DNA from: Candidatus Danuiimicrobium aquiferis
Lineage (GTDB): Bacteria; Omnitrophota; Omnitrophia; Omnitrophales; Danuiimicrobiaceae
DNA length: 64,000 bases
Direction of reading: 5' to 3'
Assembly: GCA_001804285.1 (NCBI GenBank)
Contig: MHFR01000051.1
Coordinates: 46,926 to 110,925, forward strand
Positions 6,643-52,971 of the stretch are shown one piece after another; position 1 is the stretch's first letter; each line of letters opens with the position of its first letter. The position numbers and the translations under genes are program-made. Below the pieces are notes generated by a model that worked only from the letters and a program-made list of their open reading frames with translations, searched no databases and was not told the DNA's origin.

Positions 6643-6718
6643 GTCATCCCCGCGAACGCGGGGATCCAGTAGAACCTAAAGACAACTTGGCTGGATTCCC
6701 GCTTTCGCGGGAATGACA
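6643..6718. repeat. Family-A palindromic repeat element (twin hairpins, ATTCCC-N8-GGGAAT core), intergenic uxs/rmlD
   Basis: GTCATCCCCGCGAACGCGGGGATCC ...spacer... GGATTCCCGCTTTCGCGGGAATGACA. The termini TGTCAT...ATGACA are inverted. Confidence 0.8.
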
Positions 6719-6755
6719 TAAGAACACAATTTTATTTGCATGCCCAGCATCTTTT

Positions 6756-9368: not shown

Positions 9369-9455
9369 ATTTCTTTTCTCCTTATTAAAGGGGCTGTTGT
9401 GTTAACTTAGTCATTAGAGAATGCTCAAGACCGGCAAAAGTTTTTTTCTAAAATT

Positions 9456-9533
9456 GTCATCCCCGCAAGCTTTAAGCGGGGATCCAGCAAATCTAAAATG
9501 AACCTGTGGATTCCCGCTTTCGTGGGAATGACA
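9456..9533. repeat. Family-A repeat element, intergenic rmlA/ugd
   Basis: GTCATCCCCGCAAGCTTTAAGCGGGGATCC ... GGATTCCCGCTTTCGTGGGAATGACA. Confidence 0.8.
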
Positions 9534-9578
9534 CCAAAGCTTTACCTAAATCTAATCATTAACAGCTGTCCCCTTTTG

Positions 9579-19960: not shown

Positions 19961-20470
19961 GTGGAACAAAAACAATTTGTTAAAACACTGAATGGTTTGG
20001 CCGGGAATCAAAAGTCCGGATTTACATTAGCCGAACTTTTGGTTGTCACTGTGATTGTTGGAATTTTGGGGATCCTTTCTATTCCGAAGTTTTATGCCCA
20101 AATCGAAAAGGCGAAAATATCTCAGGCTTTGGGTGTTTTATCGGCCATTCAAAAAAACGAGAAAATTTATCGCGCTGAACATGGTTATTACAAAGCATTA
20201 TATGAGATAGCAAGTACCGCAGATTGGGGAGGGATCGGAATGATGGATCCTTCTCCGTTTCTGCTTTCATCGCCCGATGGTGAGTTTAAGTATGAATTCC
20301 GCTTCTTAATGGACTCATATGGATATTTTGCGTTTGCAACACGCACAACGAAAAATGATTATAAAGGATATTCGGGTAAAAGAATTCGGGTTCGGCATTC
20401 TGACGGAAAAGCGGTCTGTAGCGCTGATCAATCTGACCACCCGTTGATTCCATTTTCAGCGTGTTGGTAG
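19961..20470 (+). CDS. Type IV pilin / pseudopilin paralog 1 (prepilin-type N-terminal cleavage/methylation domain)
   Basis: The ~20-aa leader ends ...NQKSG|FTLAELLVVTVIVGILGILSIPKF, a class III signal with Glu at +5. The C-terminal motif is CSADQSDHPLIPFSAC. Start is a GTG. Confidence 0.75.
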   Translation: MEQKQFVKTLNGLAGNQKSGFTLAELLVVTVIVGILGILSIPKFYAQIEKAKISQALGVLSAIQKNEKIYRAEHGYYKALYEIASTADWGGIGMMDPSPFLLSSPDGEFKYEFRFLMDSYGYFAFATRTTKNDYKGYSGKRIRVRHSDGKAVCSADQSDHPLIPFSACW

Positions 20471-20489: not shown

Positions 20490-21002
20490 TTGACAGTGAA
20501 AAAAAATATATTGTACACCGTATTAAAAAACAAAAAAAAAGCGGTGTCAGGCTTTACACTTGCCGAACTTTTAATTGTTACTGTGATTGTGGGAATTTTA
20601 GGGATTATTTCTATGCCGAAGTTTTATGCCCAAAAGGAAACGGCGAAAATATCGGAAGCTTTAAGTATTTTATCAGCAATTCGTCAAAATGAGCGAGCTT
20701 ATTTTCTTGAAAAGGGCTCTTACAAAATAATAGTTCCTAACGCAAATGCGACAGATTGGGGGGAGATCGGAATGCTGGATCCTTCTCCGGATCCGCCCGC
20801 AGGTGAGTTTGACTATGAATTCAAATCCGGGGAGGAGGGGATATACTATGCGTTCGCAACACGCACGGCAAACAATAATTATATGGGATATGCTGGTAAA
20901 TTCGTTCGGGTTCGGGATAGCGATGGAAAAGCTGTCTGTTCTGCTGATACCGATCACCCTTTGATTTCCGATTCAGCGTGTTTGCAGCCTTGGCCGAGTT
21001 GA
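20490..21002 (+). CDS. Type IV pilin paralog 2
   Basis: ...KKKAVSG|FTLAELLIVTVIVGILGIISMPKFYAQKE, with C-terminal CSADTDHPLISDSAC. GAGGTGA RBS at ~20484; the true start is probably the GTG at ~20496. Confidence 0.75.
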   Translation: MTVKKNILYTVLKNKKKAVSGFTLAELLIVTVIVGILGIISMPKFYAQKETAKISEALSILSAIRQNERAYFLEKGSYKIIVPNANATDWGEIGMLDPSPDPPAGEFDYEFKSGEEGIYYAFATRTANNNYMGYAGKFVRVRDSDGKAVCSADTDHPLISDSACLQPWPS

Positions 21003-26500: not shown

Positions 26501-26677
26501 ACGGCAATCACATGGTATGCAGACGGATTGAATAGCTATCCGTACAAGACAAGTTACTATGTGGCACCGAATCGAAAGTTCAGATATAACGGCCAACGAA
26601 TGGTTATGGATCCGCCGCCCGGAACTCCGGGTACGTTTGCGATGATAAAAAAAGAATCGACCGAGAAAATCTATTAG
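23552..26677 (+). CDS. Large PilX-N-domain protein (1042 aa), putative pilus tip/minor-pilin adhesin with a Cys-rich C-terminal region
   Basis: AAAGGAGA RBS at ~23533-23540, then the ATG at 23552. The N-terminus KRNSRNANTFGFALLYAIFLAIAVEIGIIG is a PilX-like hydrophobic N-domain. The C-terminal third carries many Cys in short spacings (CYCTDTEWDNDAC, CPGENTICPDGTVCQG, CNSCETPPACTCYQGQAC). No PilY1 beta-propeller signature was recognised. Confidence 0.6.
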   Translation: MAKGQEVLINQNPAIMKARSKRNSRNANTFGFALLYAIFLAIAVEIGIIGSLYTMARHQREVQTDLNRVQMRMLNVSAVNEVLRNFKEYLGTHPNFPQHDVNSEVHDFDNPLSSWYNNASTGFKNRYSHVSGFFDLDLSNLKVRKVAESDGGGVWWREYEISSRVKSLWVPMQSEIKQKVRISNGKLFDFSIFSNVDLEIQGGPSFDLQGPIFSNGNIYLMNNPGSLLKLLRPSNIDSPESREPYIMRAAGNIYFGQNRAFAPNYLLTNAGYSQNVPSEYTDPLNNGLEINVAMDLSSYLPVFRFAPFIYHFNNGTSFKTASGGTPGNSPEVCVQNNQNCVWVDTGGTFTKLVPYHPPMKSITWFYPSYGSRYYTVVAGSQYGEPSSQGFISMSNAVDINNYPGIDPAWTPAAPTTYSPPVNPSWQNSLFNGSGGQSDVIAQGMPTRSIPIGDPVNPSGAHLLIEPIMDSDTTAIKESKFQQKAIDFGSGIGFNIHCLKSEILEPIYVAIYDCADAQYISPDFQALIDLNVAQYQNTASFFDFRIASPRTYISIDINKLLQFYPQAKMIYVRLLNGLMAPFSKPPRALRIINAKRLPKTGLTIATNGRIYIQGNYNTYLYENADGSSRMAADGTTLCQDIPAEDSDSGNAAPCYCTDTEWDNDACAPPPAAIFSDSFVALSSNWSDTYTSTMPPVEGRLASDTIINVGIATGIRRSQLLNSTYFSTSCVADMSNCEANGTWLSPDDSTTYYRGSDKSYYYVNKCSGKYLTAYATSKAKAGGDTTSTKLPPPPVTDLNDPAPECEAYNAKTATEKYNADSWRLPIFTDMIRQPGGEYSWKDHKSDSAPVPVRAFKGVYFRRLNSSRIFFDGTICVLSGPCPGENTICPDGTVCQGTRGMINNSRCTLVSAETGAYSCNSCETPPACTCYQGQACDPNAANFDPTVVYGGDYYYNLYTVEYSGGLENVVNLQENWAGKSLRFLGTTAITWYADGLNSYPYKTSYYVAPNRKFRYNGQRMVMDPPPGTPGTFAMIKKESTEKIY

Positions 26678-26715
26678 CCCGGATTTCTCATCACTAATGA
26701 GAGATTCCGCTTTGT
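26676..26715. repeat. Family-B fragment forming a hairpin just 3' of the 1042-aa pilus protein gene
   Basis: TTAGCCCGGATTTCTCATCACTAATGAGAGATTCCGCT matches 39603-39640. The internal palindrome is TCTCAT-cacta-ATGAGA. Confidence 0.6.
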
Positions 26716-32182: not shown

Positions 32183-32217
32183 TTCCTCCCCTTGATGGGG
32201 GAGGACAGAGGTGAGGG
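32183..32217. repeat. Family-C palindromic repeat, intergenic pncA/pncB
   Basis: CTTCCTCCCCTTGATGGGGGAGGACAGAGGTGAGGG. Confidence 0.65.
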
Positions 32218-35574: not shown

Positions 35575-36450
35575 TTAGACGGGTTGAGTTTTTGTTTGAA
35601 CCGGCACGGCAAATGTGTTTCGGATCGGTTGTGTGATTTCCAGAAATGTGGTTGCATCGGGTACGTAATTGTTTTTCATGGTTTGCGTGGATTCGAAAGT
35701 TTTCGAGATCCGGTTTAGACGGTCAGTGGAAATGGGATGCGTTTGAAGATAATCATAAACATATGCATGATTCAAATCATTCACATCCGTTAACCGTTCA
35801 AACAGTTCGATTAGCACCGTCGGATCATAGCCGCTTTTGAGTAGATATTGAATTGCGTGTTCATCCGCGTCATAGATTCGGTCTTCCTGTGATTTCACCG
35901 AACCGAGCTTCTTACTCATAAAAGCAAGCCCGATCGTTGCGAATGATCCGTAAGGGGGAAAAGCCGGTGCGACCATTGTCCCTGCATTGAGTACCCCTTG
36001 TAGAATCTTTTTCATCCTTGAGGTTCGCGGGTCGCGGTATTGGAGCGCACCGATTTCAATCGCTAAAATCGCAGCAAGATCCTGTTCGTTTTTTAAAATC
36101 CGGAAAGCGCCTGTTGTCAAATAAATATACCCACCCGGTGCGTTTAGTGCGTAAACCCGCTCATCATTGAGTAATATAAATTGGTATTGCAGATCCCTTC
36201 GTTCAGCAAAAGCAGAGACATTGCGACCGACGGTATTGACATACTCAGAAATCAGGGGCTGATCGTAAACGGGCACCATCCCCAAGATTTGCTGATTGAT
36301 CGTTTTTCCGACTTCAGATTCTGCAGGCAGAAAAGAAGTGCTTACCGGCACATGATCATCAACTTGATTTATTGTGCACCCAAAGAGAAAGAAAACAATG
36401 CAGATTGCGAGTTCGTTTCTAACGATATTTATCCGGATAGGTTTATTCAT
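35575..36450 (-). CDS. M48-like lipoprotein, predicted catalytically inactive (HExxH degenerated)
   Basis: The lipobox-like N-terminus is ICIVFFLFGC. The M48 fold context is YALNAPGGYIYLTTGAF ... EQDLAAILAIEIGALQY, where the canonical HEIGH reads AIEIGAL. Downstream EHAIQYLLKSGYDPTVLIELF keeps the third-ligand Glu region. Confidence 0.6.
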   Translation of the reverse strand: MNKPIRINIVRNELAICIVFFLFGCTINQVDDHVPVSTSFLPAESEVGKTINQQILGMVPVYDQPLISEYVNTVGRNVSAFAERRDLQYQFILLNDERVYALNAPGGYIYLTTGAFRILKNEQDLAAILAIEIGALQYRDPRTSRMKKILQGVLNAGTMVAPAFPPYGSFATIGLAFMSKKLGSVKSQEDRIYDADEHAIQYLLKSGYDPTVLIELFERLTDVNDLNHAYVYDYLQTHPISTDRLNRISKTFESTQTMKNNYVPDATTFLEITQPIRNTFAVPVQTKTQPV

Positions 36451-36544
36451 CAGAATTTAATCATTGGTAATCGCCCCGTATAAGACATTCGGGACGGTTT
36501 GAAGGTTTTTAATTGATATTTCTTGTCGTTCGTTGTTTCTCAAC

Positions 36545-36860
36545 TTCTAAAAATCCGAATTCCCGAATATCGCCCGCCACAAAGAGTTGGCGGGTCCGCC
36601 ATGTTGTGTGGTGGAACATCCGAAACAAGCCCTAAATTCGAATACCTCAATATTTTAAATAACTTTTGTGATATTTGAATTTTGGATTTCGGATTTGCTT
36701 CGGATTCCGTAATTTCGTGCTTCGAAATTAACCTAACAAACCCTATGCGAATTTGTGAAACAAGGTAATGATAACCTGCGCCCGCCCCGCATAAAACACG
36801 CGGGACAGGTTGTCCGCCACTAAAGCTTAGGCGGATCCACCAACGATTTGTGGTGGACAA
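36545..36860. repeat. Family-B related composite repeat region adjacent to tRNA-Arg
   Basis: It shares TCCGAAACAAGCCCTAAATTCGAAT (reverse complement of 39822-39847), ATATTTGAATTTTGGATTTCGGATTTG (reverse complement of ~39545-39590) and TTTCG.GCTTCGAAATTAACC with the right copy. Short CCGCCAC..N..TGGCGG hairpins also recur at 36569-36600, 36812-36840 and 37323-37350. Confidence 0.65.
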
Positions 36861-36890
36861 ATTTTGATCGATGTTTATTTACAAGTAATT

Positions 36891-36964
36891 TGCGCCCGCC
36901 GAGGATCGAACTCGGAACCTACAGGTTCGAAGCCTGTCACTCTATCCAATTGAGCTACGGGCGC
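36891..36964 (-). tRNA. tRNA-Arg (anticodon TCG)
   Basis: The reverse complement is GCGCCCGTAGCTCAATTGGATAGAGTGACAGGCTTCGAACCTGTAGGTTCCGAGTTCGATCCTCGGCGGGCGCA. The acceptor is GCGCCCG/CGGGCGC. The anticodon stem ACAGG/CCTGT encloses loop CTTCGAA. Confidence 0.85.
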
Positions 36965-37907
36965 ACTAACGGTAATACTTTACTAATGCTTAGGTTATCC
37001 CGCCATAGAATTTTATTTGCAAGATAACCTTTATCGGCCGTCCTTTAGGGCGGGCGCTTTGAAATCTTTTATTTGTAACCCTCAACGGGTTCTTATATAT
37101 GTAAGTGATTGGGTTGTCATGACTTCTTATCAATGAATTAGATTTATTTAAATGTAAGTCATGGCTATCCAGCCGAGCTACAATCTGACATAACCACAAC
37201 CTCTAATTGCCGTTATTTTAACAATTTACAACGATTTATCAAACATTTCTTTCCCCTGAATTTCTTTCCTTGTAAAAAGCAAGGAACTTGCGGATCGTCT
37301 CATTTTGAAAAGCCTTATACTTGTCCGCCACTATTGCGTTGGCGGATCAGCCTTTGGCTGAAAGCGGGGATCCAAAAAATAATTCAAATTCAAATACTGG
37401 ATTTCTGCCTACTGCCTGCGGGAATCTTCCTCTTGCCTTTTCCAATACTAATTTTCGGACGGGTATCTGACATCTATCTTAAAACAACTTACATGATGGT
37501 TAAATGCCGCGTCGAGATCAAGAAATCGCCTTCGCATTTCAAAGCAATCAGATGTCTGTTGCGTTGGCGTGAAATAATTCAGGCATGCATTGTTATCATC
37601 GCCGGACTCAAGATTTTATAACGACTGTAGAAATCAAACTGCGCCAATTTCTAAATACGATTTGGGGCCACGATTTGGGGAAATAAGTATCTTTTTGAAG
37701 GTTTCAGAGGTACTATTGTCTTGCAAAGTAACGCGAGAAGGCGAGGTTTTGCCGCGCGATTGGCGAGCAGACCATTCTGCAAACGGTTTTCATCTTTGTC
37801 TTGAGCCTCTTGCTTGGGTCATTCTGATTTTGTTTAAACTGCGAGTTTTATTCCTGATTTATGAGAATTCTTGCAATGATAATATCGAGATTAAGAAAGG
37901 ACACGGC

Positions 37908-38378
37908 ATGATAAAAAAACCTCATCCAGAGAAAAAATATTCTAAGGTGGATTTGGAAAAGATACGGACGAGAGCGAGGGAAATATGGAAGAGGAAATGT
38001 CAATCACTTAATACTGCGCTTGACGATTGGCTTCAAGCAGAACGGGAACTTCGGAAACAACTTGGGATAGAGCATAAAAGTTCTGCGGATTATACCGCTG
38101 AAGAAGTTAGACAAATAAAAGAAAGGGCGGAAGCTGTCCGACAAGAAAAGATCGGGACATTGCGCACGGCATTTAACGACTGGATCGAAGCAGAGCAAGA
38201 GCTCAAAGCGGAATTAAAGAAAAGGATTAATGTAAACGGCCTTTTTGATTTATGGTTTGGAGAAGCATCTTCCCGTGTTACCTTGATATTAAAAACAAAT
38301 CCCGTGGCCTCTTCGATTGCTATTGATGAAATTTTGGGGCAGCAATATGTTGAATTAATGGCAAAGTGTATGACCTGA
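37908..38378 (+). CDS. DUF2934-like small protein with two DWxxAExEL repeats
   Basis: AAGGACAC RBS, then the ATG at 37908. The repeats are RAREIWKRKCQSLNTALDDWLQAERELRKQLG and RAEAVRQEKIGTLRTAFNDWIEAEQELKAELKK. The ORF-track upstream extension from 37590 is probably non-coding. Confidence 0.5.
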   Translation: MIKKPHPEKKYSKVDLEKIRTRAREIWKRKCQSLNTALDDWLQAERELRKQLGIEHKSSADYTAEEVRQIKERAEAVRQEKIGTLRTAFNDWIEAEQELKAELKKRINVNGLFDLWFGEASSRVTLILKTNPVASSIAIDEILGQQYVELMAKCMT

Positions 38379-38394
38379 ACGATATTTAAAAAAT

Positions 38395-38560
38395 TGCGAG
38401 CGAAAAGTTGCTAACCCGACCTTCTCATCGATTTTGCGACTCAACGAGAAGGCCGCTTTTGGCGTAATATGTTGCGCCAAAAGTTTTGCGCGCTTGTTAA
38501 ATCAGGGCTTACGAGCGGAATTTCTTATTGGGGATGAGAAATCCGGGCTAACAGTACGCT
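38395..38560. repeat. Family-B repeat, left copy (inverted orientation), immediately 3' of the ROK kinase gene
   Basis: Its reverse complement aligns with 39597-39800: TTAGCCCGGATTTCTCATC..AATAAGAAATTCCGCTCGTAAG / CCCTGATTTAACAAG.GCGCAAAACTTT.G.GCGCAAC ... CAAAATCGATGAGAA.GTCGGGTTAG. Confidence 0.75.
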
Positions 38561-39511
38561 TTAGGGTGCGATTTTCCGCGATTCCAGAACGAGTGCCAAA
38601 ACGCCGAAATCCGCAACTTTATCTTTCAATTTTGACCGGATAATTTTACAAGTTTTATAAACCGCCGGCCAGGTTTCCCTTTTAATGGCCGCAATCATTG
38701 GATCCCAAAAATAGTGAACTTCTGACATCACTCCACCGCCTAAAATAATCGCTTCCGGATTCAATAGGTTAATCACATTTGCCAGGCCAATACCTAAATA
38801 ATCAGCAGCAATCAATCTGGCGCGAATCGAAAGCCGATCACCTTTTTTAGCCGCTTGGGCAATGGCCGAACCGTTCACAGACGTTTTGTGATTTAGATTC
38901 TTTTTTACATAATTCTCAATCGCTGTTCCGCTTGCATAAGCTTCAAGGCAACCGCGCTTTCCGCAATTGCATTTGATTCCGTTCGGGACAACTGTCATAT
39001 GACCAAGCTCCCCTGCAACTCCCGACGTTCCTCTCACCAAACGTCCATTGGCAAAAATTCCGGAGCCGATACCTGTGCTGACGGTAACATACAAAAAATC
39101 GCTGAATTTTCTACCTTCGCCAAAATAGCTTTCTCCCAGTGCGGTTACATTTGCATCGTTATCGACGAAAACAGGTAATTTTAATTTCTTCCGAAGAATT
39201 GATTTAAGCGCGAGCCCGCGCCATCCGGGTAAATTAGGCGATTTTAGTACGATTCCATTTTGAACATCAATATGTCCGGGAACAGCAACTCCAACACCCA
39301 AGATTTTGTTTTTCGATAGATGATATTTCGAGACAAGAGAATGAATGGCGTCACAAATTTCCGAAATGGATTGAACCGGTTTTTGTCCGGATCGTGAAGA
39401 GAAACGGTTATGATCTAAAATCTTTCCTTTGGTGGTTCCCAAAGTCACAGAGGTTTTGGTTCCGCCAATATCAATCCCGATGAGATATTTTTTCTTTATG
39501 TGTGCCATCAT
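38561..39511 (-). CDS. ROK-family sugar kinase (glucokinase-like)
   Basis: MAHIKKKYLIGIDIGGTKTSVTLGT ... plus the ROK Cys motif region CNCGKRGCLEAYASG. The ORF-track N-terminal extension (MIFEFEISDFGIREF...) translates a family-B repeat, so the internal start is used. Confidence 0.8.
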   Translation of the reverse strand: MMAHIKKKYLIGIDIGGTKTSVTLGTTKGKILDHNRFSSRSGQKPVQSISEICDAIHSLVSKYHLSKNKILGVGVAVPGHIDVQNGIVLKSPNLPGWRGLALKSILRKKLKLPVFVDNDANVTALGESYFGEGRKFSDFLYVTVSTGIGSGIFANGRLVRGTSGVAGELGHMTVVPNGIKCNCGKRGCLEAYASGTAIENYVKKNLNHKTSVNGSAIAQAAKKGDRLSIRARLIAADYLGIGLANVINLLNPEAIILGGGVMSEVHYFWDPMIAAIKRETWPAVYKTCKIIRSKLKDKVADFGVLALVLESRKIAP

Positions 39512-39519
39512 ATTAGTGC

Positions 39520-39870
39520 GATGCTTCTTAATTCGCAAAATGCCGAAAAATCCGAATTCGCGAATACCAAAATCCGAAATCTCAAATTCAAATATCACAA
39601 AAACTGTTTTAGCCCGGATTTCTCATCGCTAATGAGAAATTCCGCTCGTAAGAGCTGTGGCGCAAAGATGGTTTGCATCTTTGCGACGCAGGGCTTATCT
39701 TTTGCACCCTGATTTAACAAGGGCGCAAAACTTTGTGCGCAACTGATTGCGCCCAAAGCGACTTTCTTGTCGATTCACAAAATCGATGAGAAAGTCGGGT
39801 TAGAAATTGAGACATTCGAATTTAGGGCTTGTTTCGGATTTCACAATTTCGCGTTTCGAAATTAACCTTG
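39520..39870. repeat. Family-B repeat, right copy, immediately 5' of the ROK kinase gene. It carries a ~55-bp internal insertion relative to the left copy
   Basis: ...AAAATCCGAAATCTCAAATTCAAATATCAC ... TTTTAGCCCGGATTTCTCATCGCTAATGAGAAATTCCGCTCGTAAG ... CCCTGATTTAACAAGGGCGCAAAACTTTGTGCGCAAC ... CAAAATCGATGAGAAAGTCGGGTTAG ... ATTCGAATTTAGGGCTTGTTTCGGATTTCAC. Confidence 0.75.
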
Positions 39871-39908
39871 GAAAACAGTACCCGTACTTTGGGAAGGGGT
39901 ATCGTTGT

Positions 39909-40493
39909 TTACTCATTTTGAGAGGCTTTAATCGCAATGGCCAGGTAATTAGCCACTGCTTTTTTCTTCAAATCGGCCGTTAACTGATTTCTGAAAGAAT
40001 CTGAGCCTTCATATTGCGTTCCGATTTTTTTATAATATTTTTGTAGGTCCTCATAACTCTTATCCTCGATGACGTTGATCTCTTTTCCGTCAGTATCATA
40101 CTGCCAAAGCGCTGCCTGAACGAAACCGTTTTCATCAACCGCACATTTTATGTAATAAGATCCTGCGCCACCCAAGTATGTAAATGCAGTCGAAAGCTCG
40201 TTCGGCGAGACAAAATACTTGCAATCTTTTCTATCGGCCAGAGAACCGTCCGCATACAGCGGAACAGGAATTTGTTCCCCGTTTCGCACTTTACCGGTCT
40301 TGATTGCAATAAAATTATTAATTTTTTGCGCAAGAATAGACTCTATGTTTCGATTTTCGGCGCTGTCCCGAGGTGCGGCCACTTCTTTAATTTCATTTCG
40401 TCCCAATAAAGGATTTTTCGCAAACGCTTCGGGCAACACGCATATTTGCGCTATTCCCGCAATCAGCATTATTTTAAATAAAACATTTTTCAT
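39909..40493 (-). CDS. Hypothetical secreted protein (signal peptide)
   Basis: MKNVLFKIMLIAGIAQICVLPEAFA looks like a signal peptide. No family was recognised. It is flanked by family-B repeat fragments. Confidence 0.5.
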   Translation of the reverse strand: MKNVLFKIMLIAGIAQICVLPEAFAKNPLLGRNEIKEVAAPRDSAENRNIESILAQKINNFIAIKTGKVRNGEQIPVPLYADGSLADRKDCKYFVSPNELSTAFTYLGGAGSYYIKCAVDENGFVQAALWQYDTDGKEINVIEDKSYEDLQKYYKKIGTQYEGSDSFRNQLTADLKKKAVANYLAIAIKASQNE

Positions 40494-40531
40494 TATTTCT
40501 CCCTTTTTCGCCCTGATTTAACAACGGCGGG

Positions 40532-41770
40532 TTAGGGTCTGACAATTAACATGCAACCCTCAATATCCATCCGGATTACTTTCAAAAAGACATCGTCTCC
40601 TTTAAAATTCACTTTATCAACAATTCCGCCATCATCGTCATAATCAAACGTCCCGTTACCGCCGACATTCAAAAGGTCGTAGCCTTGCCTGATGGATGCC
40701 TCTTGAAAACTGTCAAACATCAGCTTGTTTTCCGGATAGAAGATTTCTTGTCCTTTTATAACGGGGCTCCCATCCGCAATTCCCAGTTGCAATTTAATCC
40801 GCCAAGATTGCTGATCTGTTTTAGAATAAATCTTCAATTCGATCATCGCGCCTTCTCGAATCTCTGAGAAGTTGAGTAACTGAAGCGCCCGGATATCTTC
40901 ACTATTCGGAATCGGAAATTCTAAACCCTCTTTTAAAAGGATCCCTTGCCCCGATTTCCCCAGGGCCCTTACATTAATAAATGAATTTGATTTTCGTTCC
41001 AATTCTTTCCCGCGAAAGACGATGTTGCTTTCGACGGCAGTCACCTGGACCAACTGATTTGCGTCAAGGTGATCCTTGTCTTTTAATTCAAGGAGCCGGT
41101 CATACCCATCGTAATATTCGAAAGCAGCATCGGTGACATGAACGGAAGATCGATTCAAATCGAAATCAGCCACTTCGTCATTATAATGCCGGAAAATTGT
41201 GCTTTTTTCTTTGTCCCACTCATAACGCATAAGGGTTTCCGGATTTTTTCGATAATCCGGATGATAGGCAATCCGGACAGCATTTCCTTTTGAAATGGGG
41301 AATCCAAACTCGATCCATTCTTCCGTGCCGGAGTCACTTGTGTGAACAAAAGCTCTGTACGTATGAAACTCTGTTTCACCGCGAAATTTGACTTCGCCAA
41401 TAGGCGGCGCAGACCCTTTCCGAATCCGGTTGCTTAAATAAAACCGATTTCCTTTCGTCGGCTGATCGAACGCATCGAGCCACAAAGGAACGAAACTTAC
41501 CGATTTTTTTTGCGCATCTACTATTTCAACGGCATCTCGAAGGCCCTGAAGTTCGTAGTCACCTTCTGACATTCTTCGCGTCACATCTTCCGCCATTTTT
41601 GAAACAACCGCTTCTTCAATGGAATATCTCCATGCGGTAAGAGCCGTATCCAAAAGGCGCTCAATCCCAGCCGTCAATATCGACGCGATGGAAACGGCGA
41701 CCAAAACCTCAATGAGTGTTAATCCTTTTTCCTTGCGATCTGTTCTCATATTCCCCATGCAAGTCATCAT
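40532..41770 (-). CDS. Large pseudopilin (prepilin-type N-terminus; GspK-like size)
   Basis: ...RKEKG|LTLIEVLVAVSIASILTAGIERLL. Length is ~400 aa. The start is among several N-terminal Met codons. Confidence 0.6.
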   Translation of the reverse strand: MMTCMGNMRTDRKEKGLTLIEVLVAVSIASILTAGIERLLDTALTAWRYSIEEAVVSKMAEDVTRRMSEGDYELQGLRDAVEIVDAQKKSVSFVPLWLDAFDQPTKGNRFYLSNRIRKGSAPPIGEVKFRGETEFHTYRAFVHTSDSGTEEWIEFGFPISKGNAVRIAYHPDYRKNPETLMRYEWDKEKSTIFRHYNDEVADFDLNRSSVHVTDAAFEYYDGYDRLLELKDKDHLDANQLVQVTAVESNIVFRGKELERKSNSFINVRALGKSGQGILLKEGLEFPIPNSEDIRALQLLNFSEIREGAMIELKIYSKTDQQSWRIKLQLGIADGSPVIKGQEIFYPENKLMFDSFQEASIRQGYDLLNVGGNGTFDYDDDGGIVDKVNFKGDDVFLKVIRMDIEGCMLIVRP

Positions 41771-43350: not shown

Positions 43351-43364
43351 CCTGACCGATTTTT

Positions 43365-43492
43365 GTCATTCCCGCATGTTTTAGGCGGGAATCCATTGTA
43401 CCAATAGATGCTAATTGACTTATGGATCCCCGATTCCCTGGAAATACAGGGCCGGCCCTCGTCTTACCGAGGGAAAGCATTCGGGAATGACA
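43365..43492. repeat. Family-A repeat element (long variant), between the hypothetical gene and gspF
   Basis: GTCATTCCCGCATGTTTTAGGCGGGAATCC ... GGATCCCCGATTCCCTGG...CCCTCGTCTTACCGAGGG...CATTCGGGAATGACA. Confidence 0.75.
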
Positions 43493-44725: not shown

Positions 44726-44740
44726 CGCAATTTAGTTGAT

Positions 44741-44875
44741 GTCATGCCCGCACGCTTAAAGCGGGCATCCACAGCTTCTGGATTCCCGCTTTCGCGGGAA
44801 TGACAAAGAAACATATGCCCTTTTACAGATAATTGCTTCAAAGTATTAAACAAATACAGTTATTTAGCCTTCTCT
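44741..44875. repeat. Family-A repeat element + conserved ~55-bp extension, between gspF and the secretin
   Basis: GTCATGCCCGCACGCTTAAAGCGGGCATCCACAGCTTCTGGATTCCCGCTTTCGCGGGAATGACAAAG, then ...CCCTTTTACAGATAATTGCTTCAAAGTATTAAACAAATAC. It is near-identical to 50770..50905. Confidence 0.8.
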
Positions 44876-50769: not shown

Positions 50770-50905
50770 CCAGGTTCGTGTCATGCCCGCATGCTTAAGG
50801 CGGGCATCCACAGTTTCTGGATTCCCGCTTTCGCGGGAATGACAAAAAATCAGAGGCCCTTTTACAGATAATCGCTTCAAAACGCTAAACAAATACTGCC
50901 ATTGA
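50770..50905. repeat. Family-A repeat element + conserved extension, between merR and gspE
   Basis: GTCATGCCCGCATGCTTAAGGCGGGCATCCACAGTTTCTGGATTCCCGCTTTCGCGGGAATGACAAAA ... CCCTTTTACAGATAATCGCTTCAAAACGCTAAACAAATAC. Confidence 0.8.
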
Positions 50906-52681: not shown

Positions 52682-52835
52682 GAATCAACCCGTTGGTTAT
52701 GATGATATGATGAGCTTTGTGTTTCAGAATTACAATTTTGACAATTTAACCTGAACCCCTCATTAAATCAAGAAAAAAGTGCCCAATCAAAGCCATGACA
52801 CCCTTGATTTAAATTTTGTGTTTTGCAAAATTTAT

Positions 52836-52907
52836 GTCATTCCCGCAAGCTTTAAGCGGGAATCCAGAAAAAATATGGATCCCCGATAGAAACATTCGGG
52901 GATGACA
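52836..52907. repeat. Family-A repeat element, between gspE and the giant gene
   Basis: GTCATTCCCGCAAGCTTTAAGCGGGAATCC ... GGATCCCCGATAGAAACATTCGGGGATGACA. Confidence 0.8.
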
Positions 52908-52971
52908 AATCATTCATTGTCAAAGAGTTGTGATTATTACACCATAAAAAGCGCAGAATTCACGTTGAAAT

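Follow-up and report, generated by a model that had tools for sequence, protein, structure and literature searches.

Bacterial MITEs (transposable elements of the miniature inverted-repeat type), such as the Correia elements of Neisseria, the enterobacterial ERIC sequences and the pneumococcal RUP elements, are short, non-coding, intergenic and multi-copy; they carry terminal inverted repeats (TIRs) and short target duplications, fold into hairpins of high stability and frequently sit inside other repeats. Insertion sequences (ISs) of the IS1380 family, in the ISfinder description, have ends that begin with CC and produce duplications of 4-5 bp, and the eukaryotic piggyBac transposons target TTAA and have ends that begin with CCC. 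In phylogenies of piggyBac, the IS1380 transposases form the outgroup (PMC10813416). A 5-bp duplication is on record for IS1247 (PMC3281130, Table 2), and the 'TMos' of Paracoccus consist of one IS1380-family copy together with adjacent genomic DNA (PMC3281130). Here we describe two inverted repeats that lie on either side of a gene for a ROK-family sugar kinase in a stretch of 64,000 nucleotides of Candidatus Danuiimicrobium aquiferis (contig MHFR01000051.1, positions 46,926 to 110,925), the whole of which is referred to below as the window.

We consider it very probable that these repeats are two independent insertions of an IS1380-type MITE, with ISMaq4-like ends, around a resident ROK gene, and that the bracketing of this gene is coincidental. 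The evidence comprises the anatomy of the elements, their copy number and flanking duplications, the nested insertion of one of them in a repeat for which a paralogous empty site exists, the identity of their ends with those of transposase-encoding elements, and the ancestral position of the ROK gene. An earlier note on the same DNA had called the repeats MITE-like. This label is borne out: they have TIRs and are flanked by 4-bp duplications, numerous copies are dispersed, and their ends are the same as those of IS1380-family elements.

Anatomy of the elements flanking the ROK gene

A repeat finder returned two pairs of inverted arms around the ROK gene, one of 100 nt (38408-38507 and 39707-39806, 85% complementary) and one of 49 nt (38503-38551 and 39609-39657, 90% complementary). 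They make up a left and a right MITE copy (Table 1), both of the form TTAG-CCCGGATTTCTCAT...ATGAGAA(A/G)GTCGGG-TTAG, the CTAA beside the left copy being TTAG when read on the element's own strand. In the right copy, the left end CCCGGATTTCTCAT (39613-39626) and the right end ATGAGAAAGTCGGG (39786-39799) match at 12 of 14 positions; written as TIRs, CCCGGATTTCTCAT stands against CCCGACTTTCTCAT in the right copy (12/14) and against CCCGACCTTCTCAT in the left copy (11/14). A check for target-site duplications, which the earlier note had recommended, gave a separate TTAG/TTAG pair for each window copy, and removal of the elements yields the reconstructed empty sites ...GAAAAGTTGCTAACAGTACGC... on the left and ...CAAAAACTGTTTTAGAAATTGAGAC... 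on the right. The left copy is placed between the converging stops of a DUF2934 gene (38378) and the ROK gene (38561).

The inverted copies reported earlier on both sides of the ROK gene are thus real, and the difference of about 55 bp between them corresponds to a single hairpin of 54 nt, the second of the element. Since this hairpin is present in 19 of the 20 other aligned copies, the right copy represents the standard form and the left copy a derivative with an internal deletion. Identity to the family consensus is 95.9% for the right copy and 90.1% for the left. Neither window copy contains an open reading frame (ORF), which makes them derivatives and not autonomous IS1380-family ISs; indeed, no ORF of at least 100 aa overlaps any of the 26 copies described below.

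The two fragments that had been noticed near 40505-40545 and 26676-26715 could likewise be confirmed, as right-end and left-end remnants of the MITE, respectively. The right end of the former reads CGGGTTAG, and the TAA stop (40532-40534, minus strand) of a 412-aa pseudopilin gene lies inside its TTAG.

The right copy is nested in a second palindromic repeat

A second palindromic repeat, here called CD, occurs twice in the window. The ROK-side CD is split by the right MITE, and the tRNA-side CD, which carries no MITE of this family (family B of the earlier note), provides a paralogous empty site. Once the right MITE and one TTAG are removed, the ROK-side CD aligns gap-free to the core of the tRNA-side copy (36618-36696), indicating that the insertion added the element plus 4 bp. 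The 4-bp duplication rests on the paired TTAGs and on this paralogous empty site. The earlier note had extended the right copy to about 39870 and had recognized its sub-modules at 36545-36740; both assignments fall away, as the DNA concerned is the unrelated CD repeat, host of the right MITE. No orthologous empty site or close relative was found, the nearest ROK homologues being about 57% identical, and the loci from the metagenome scan described below, which belong to the same species, do not overlap the window.

The CD core of about 80 nt, bounded by AAATCCGAAA and TTTCGGATTT, is inverted between the two copies, with the outer arms in the same orientation. The flip could mean that the core inverted between its own inverted repeats, or that it is a small, independent element that inserted either way. 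The tRNA-side CD also carries a nested double hairpin of 47 nt (36571-36617). No further CD copies were found in the DNA examined.

Copies elsewhere in the same species

Metagenomes were scanned for the left-hairpin pattern, which gave 28 loci. The proteins encoded there are the same as in Omnitrophica bacterium RIFCSPLOWO2_12_FULL_44_17 and in two sister metagenome-assembled genomes (Candidatus Danuiimicrobium aquiferis), and the loci are thus other places in the window's own species. The window's ROK protein, which also occurs on ENA scaffold ANAN16-1...scaffold_575, is listed by NCBI under RIFCSPLOWO2_12_FULL_44_17. Besides the window pair, at least 22 distinct copies in these loci are full-length (185-188 bp), a few have nested inserts (about 280 bp), and short forms with deletions occur as well; pairwise identity among the aligned copies has a mean of 92%. 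Similarity between copies stops exactly at TTAG on both sides, and the flanks beyond it are almost all unique. TTAG stands on both sides in 21 of the 25 copies tabulated with their flanks, and no wider target consensus outside TTAG was found in the flanks of these tabulated copies. All 26 copies are intergenic, in either orientation and beside gene starts or stops. The flanking tetranucleotide overlaps a stop codon in four of the 26.

Several observations on individual loci can be added. TTAG or CTAA beside the MITE ends coincides with the stop codon of the adjacent gene in the window (40528-40535) and in loci L110, L113, L120 and L122, in keeping with a TTAG target that occurs frequently where genes end. 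On one raw metagenome contig (L129), the left flank is that of one MITE locus and the right flank that of another (compared with L115 and L122), with the MITE between them, so that this junction stems either from recombination between copies or from an assembly chimera at the repeat. Loci L119 and L127 have the right flank in common and not the left. In L130 (3250-3443) and L135 (6402-6596), the MITE is nested in another palindromic repeat (CCCTCACC...GGTGAGGG), to which the window sequences 2916-2945 and 32188-32217 are related, and in L119, L120, L128 and L121 the MITE itself carries a nested insert of about 80-100 nt.

Ends shared with IS1380-family insertion sequences

The 18-mer TTAGCCCGGATTTCTCAT, that is, TTAG followed by CCCGGATTTCTCAT, was scanned on both strands of 185,579 species genomes (596 Gb). 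At least 108 stretches with at least 109 ends matched it, against a chance expectation that we estimate at about 17. Among the matches listed, the taxa are Acidobacteriota, Desulfobulbales, Verrucomicrobiota, Alpha- and Gammaproteobacteria and Planctomycetaceae, often with many matches per genome, and the 18-mer is always terminal, in the form TTAG-CCCGGATTTCTCAT ... ATGAGAAATCCGGG-TTAG. These listed matches include 53 elements with an identifiable second end, 36 of which have TTAG there too, and fall into size classes of 47-57, 112-278, 522-572 and 1559-1652 bp.

The elements of 1.56-1.65 kb, which are bounded by the identical 18 nt and come from Gamma- and Alphaproteobacteria, encode transposases of the IS1380 family, as judged from Pfam DDE_Tnp_1_4 (PF13701; 6e-160 and 6e-145) and from the NCBIfam equivalog transpos_IS1380 (NF033539; 9e-118 and 5e-120). 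A copy from Vreelandella, with the structure TTAG-CCCGGATTTCTCATGAGG ... ATGAGAAATCCGGG-CTAG, shares 91-99% identity with copies on plasmids, and two of these (93-95%) bear the annotation 'IS1380-like element ISMaq4 family transposase'. By tblastn, IS1380-type transposases adjoin the shared end in at least 15 loci, Acidobacteriota loci included. In L036, L093, L039, L046 and other genome loci, the same 18 nt bound transposases that are only 34-57% identical to each other. The window elements agree with IS1380-family ends in that their own ends begin with CCCGG and their flanking repeat is 4 bp long. A search of a literature library for MITEs derived from IS1380, for the ends of ISMaq4/ISPa33 and for MITEs of Omnitrophica or Danuiimicrobium returned nothing relevant.

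We note that each end, when read outward, spells ATG AGA AAT CCG GGN followed by TAG or TAA from the flank. The result is a minute ORF whose stop is supplied by the target duplication; it may be coincidental.

The ROK gene and its neighbourhood

The left MITE copy ends 9 nt from the ROK stop codon (38561-38563), and the right copy is situated upstream of the gene, at a distance of 97 nt from ATG 39511, the likely start. The public gene model is longer (345 aa, GTG start at 39598) and begins inside repeat DNA. ROK homologues of 316-324 aa align only from residue 36 of the 345-aa ORF, indicating that ATG 39511 is the probable start and that the first 29 residues are spurious. The statement that the repeats abut the gene at both its ends consequently holds at the stop and fails at the start, where it is only the over-long GTG ORF that comes up to the repeat.

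The assignments of the ROK and DUF2934 proteins made from sequence alone were corroborated by Pfam, and that of tRNA-Arg(tcg) by ARAGORN and Rfam (Table 1). The DUF2934 gene is not found at the corresponding position in relatives. Similarly, the spacer of about 940 nt between tRNA-Arg and the DUF2934 gene, which is non-coding as previously described, has no copy elsewhere in the DNA examined and is missing from the compact ROK-tRNA spacer of the relatives.

Table 1. Positions of the MITE copies, the associated repeats and the neighbouring genes in the window.
Feature	Positions	Strand	Remarks
Left MITE copy	38411-38551	-	133-bp element 38415-38547; CTAA 38411-38414 and CTAA 38548-38551
Right MITE copy	39609-39803	+	187-bp element 39613-39799; TTAG 39609-39612 and TTAG 39800-39803
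Hairpin 2 segment, 54 nt	39652-39705	+	Alignment columns 44-97; in the right copy, not in the left
MITE remnant (left end)	26674-26714 (repeat finder 26671-26711)	+	Consists of TTAG and the left end with its hairpin; located upstream of a pilin-like gene
MITE remnant (right end)	40503-40535 (repeat-finder match 40503-40529)	+	Internal CTTTTTCGCCCTGATTTAACAA joined to right end CGGCGGG and TTAG (40532-40535)
CD element, ROK side	39546-39870	+	Halves 39546-39608 and 39804-39870, right MITE between them
CD element, tRNA side	36545-36740	+	No family-B MITE; paralogous empty site
ROK-family sugar kinase gene (glucokinase-like), 316 aa	38561-39511	-	Pfam 6e-78
tRNA-Arg(tcg)	36890-36965	-	ARAGORN, Rfam; conserved neighbour of ROK in relatives
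M48 peptidase gene	35575-36450	-	Conserved downstream neighbour of tRNA-Arg in relatives
DUF2934 tandem-repeat protein gene	37908-38378	+	Pfam 1.6e-8; public call starts at 37716
Spacer, about 940 nt	36966-37907		No ORF above 95 aa, no Rfam match; double-hairpin repeat 37321-37348
TGCGCCCGCC	36777-36786	+	Same 10 nt as at the 3' terminus of the tRNA-Arg gene (36891-36900), in direct orientation

Other repeats in the window

A family of GC-rich hairpins (TGTCATNCCCGC...GCGGGNATCCA and CTGGATTCCCGCTTTCGCGGGAATGACA) is found at 1704-1739, 6691-6726, 9455-9541, 43364-43400, 44735-44864, 50774-50903 and 52835-52908. These hairpins are often paired into units of about 130 nt that are 87% alike; members with 80-95% identity also occur elsewhere in the species, and the family is probably what the earlier note called family A. 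A small double-hairpin repeat (GTCCGCCAC..GGCGGAT type) is present in three copies, at 36571-36617, where it is nested in CD, at 36810-36860, within the 104-nt segment bounded by TGCGCCCGCC, and at 37321-37348. In addition, the window contains a 251-nt direct repeat (20014-20264 and 20546-20796), 76% identical and spaced by 532 nt.

Discussion

The arrangement of the repeats had led the earlier note to suggest that the MITE pair and the ROK gene form a composite, mobilisable cassette inserted between the tRNA-Arg and the pseudopilin genes. Two inverted copies with intact outer ends do surround a single gene, synteny with relatives is lost immediately upstream of ROK, and IS1380-family elements are known to move adjacent DNA (PMC3281130). 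However, in two distant relatives (ROK 54-56% identical) the ROK, tRNA-Arg(tcg) and M48 genes follow one another in the same order on one strand, with compact gaps (85-97 nt between ROK and tRNA, 22-230 nt between tRNA and M48) and no family-B sequence, a gene order without repeats that the note itself had named as evidence against a cassette. The window keeps this order and these strands (ROK 39511-38561, tRNA 36965-36890, M48 36450-35575). Each MITE has its own TTAG/TTAG pair, and the outer flanks of the pair on the plus strand, CTAA (38411-38414) and TTAG (39800-39803), form no direct repeat. The copies also differ in age and form, as seen from their unequal identity to the consensus and from the 54-nt deletion, and the ROK homologues are typical Omnitrophica glucokinases. 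The composite cassette is thus largely refuted, and we regard it as extremely improbable. Compared with the relatives, the window has an extra 1.6 kb between ROK and tRNA (the left MITE, the DUF2934 gene and the 940 nt or so without ORFs) and about 200-400 nt more between tRNA and M48, repeats included. Such extra DNA could be expected if the islet were a decayed integrative element that entered at the tRNA-Arg gene, with the repeats as its debris, and a search for a partial repeat of the tRNA 3' end gave one exact direct repeat of 10 nt, TGCGCCCGCC, located 114 nt downstream; it occurs only twice in the 64 kb, with 0.11 expected by chance, and is suggestive of an old att-like duplication. This weak sign is what stands of the tRNA-associated debris proposed earlier. 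The repeat bounds a segment of only 104 nt, which holds the double-hairpin repeat 36810-36860, and integrases normally target the 3' end of tRNA genes, whereas the large extra segment lies 5' of the tRNA. No integrase or other mobile-element gene was found within 34-43 kb of the window, the neighbours of the tRNA being the genes for the M48 peptidase, for an acyltransferase and a glycosyltransferase, for DUF2934 and ROK, and for pseudopilins; GC content is flat, with no anomaly that would mark a foreign island, and the family-B copies are dispersed genome-wide with no tie to tRNAs. Integration at the tRNA gene therefore appears unlikely.

The stability of the folds raises another possibility, namely that the repeats are primarily functional structured modules (for example terminators, elements that stabilise mRNA or sites bound by proteins), retained to regulate the genes beside them; regulatory or terminator modules had indeed been offered as the alternative to a cassette. 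Fold z-scores are -9.05 and -8.2 for the right copy and -5.3 for the left copy on its better strand. The element folds into five hairpins closed by its ends, each end pairing with an internal complement of itself; 97.8% of cells in the consensus structure are paired, and three of the 69 pairs show compensatory double changes (8 cells), a number that the shuffle control never reached. Furthermore, two genes converge on the left copy, a position in which one would expect a terminator. On the other hand, copies lie in both orientations, beside starts and stops, with no orientation bias relative to neighbouring genes among the 26. No U-tract follows the hairpins, and scans for promoter and terminator motifs gave no meaningful enrichment, with results near shuffle expectation. 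Rfam recognized only two tRNAs in the whole window at the gathering threshold and, in 36400-40700 with E up to 5, nothing below E = 4.6 besides tRNA. One-sided changes kept pairs as G-U about as often (about 34 by our tally) as they broke them (about 31), which indicates no evident strand-specific RNA constraint, and the few covarying cells may be inherited by sub-lineages, while quasi-palindromes may be corrected by templated repair. Regulatory modules are thus very unlikely, although incidental effects on ROK transcription may occur. A strand-specific RNA was also considered as a candidate and rejected: its closing stem TTAGCCCG/CGGGTTAG, with G-U pairs, is accounted for by the inverted ends together with the TTAG direct repeat, and orientation bias is absent among the copies.

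A number of points weigh against the reading that we prefer, two independent insertions of an IS1380-type MITE around a resident gene. TTAG is invariant and is not strictly separable from a fixed part of the element ends, and one full-length IS, that of Vreelandella, is flanked by TTAG at one end and by CTAG at the other. The copies are 83-97% alike. The compensatory changes could mean that the hairpins are selected for a function beyond transposition. Lastly, tblastn detected no IS1380 transposase in about 360 kb, related-genome loci L138-L141 included; any autonomous partner in this genome is thus putative, the family may be fossil, and it is the identity of the ends that points to mobilisation in trans.

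Both this mobilisation and the chemistry of insertion we infer from sequence. An IS1380-type DDE transposase, supplied in trans, would bind both ends, and the element, once excised or copied, would be inserted at TTAG, where staggered cuts in the target would give rise to the 4-bp duplication. On our preferred reading, two elements landed independently, each in one of the intergenic spacers that adjoin the resident ROK glucokinase gene and with opposite orientations, one of them 9 nt past its stop and the other 97 nt upstream of its start, inside the CD repeat, and the left copy later lost one internal hairpin.

On a wider scale, the chances appear to us even that the TTAG+CCCGGATTTCTCAT end marks an apparently undescribed superfamily of non-autonomous elements spanning at least five phyla, in which minis of 36-57 bp that consist of hardly more than the two ends, MITEs of 110-280 bp with unrelated interiors and ISs of 1.6 kb would all depend on one IS1380 (ISMaq4-like) transposase clade (34-40% aa identity, 14-bp ends and TTAG target unchanged), with a piggyBac-like combination of a 4-bp TTAR duplication and CCC ends, and in which the end hairpins may be under selection in Ca. 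Danuiimicrobium. It is modestly notable that an 18-nt end is common, across phyla, to transposases that are 34-40% identical.

These results have practical consequences. The signature TTAG-CCCGGATTTCTCAT...ATGAGAAATCCGGG-TTAG can be used to mask or annotate such elements in metagenome-assembled genomes of several phyla, where they produce spurious ORFs and, probably, assembly chimeras, and the elements constitute a natural set of substrates for the study of end and target recognition by IS1380-type, piggyBac-related transposases. For the window itself, the annotated ROK protein should be corrected from the public 345-aa model to about 316 aa. A false lead is also removed, ROK being a resident housekeeping gene and not cargo, and the repeats ordinary intergenic transposon derivatives.

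The closest described systems are the ISMaq4/ISPa33-type ISs of the IS1380 family, with which the window elements have in common an identical terminal 14 bp, CCCGGATTTCTCAT, starting with CC, as well as the TTAG next to the ends and the 4-bp flanking repeat. They differ from these ISs in that they measure 133-187 bp, encode nothing, have an unrelated interior and carry a degenerate right end (11-12/14), and tblastn over about 360 kb, related-genome loci included, gave no cognate transposase for the window organism. In size, TIRs, duplications, hairpins and nesting, they are like the Correia, ERIC and RUP elements, but their parent transposase family and target (TTAG) are different, as is their architecture of five hairpins, with each end folded back upon itself. 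The flanking of a gene by inverted transposase substrates recalls composite transposons and the one-ended mobilisation described for IS1380-family elements (ISEcp1, ISPme1 'TMos'), a family known to move adjacent DNA (PMC3281130); here, however, the unit has no overall duplication and the enclosed gene is ancestral at its locus. Finally, although the window elements are prokaryotic and their end sequence differs beyond CCC, they share with eukaryotic piggyBac a distantly related transposase type, a 4-bp duplication of TTAG or TTAA (TTAR) and ends that start with CCC.

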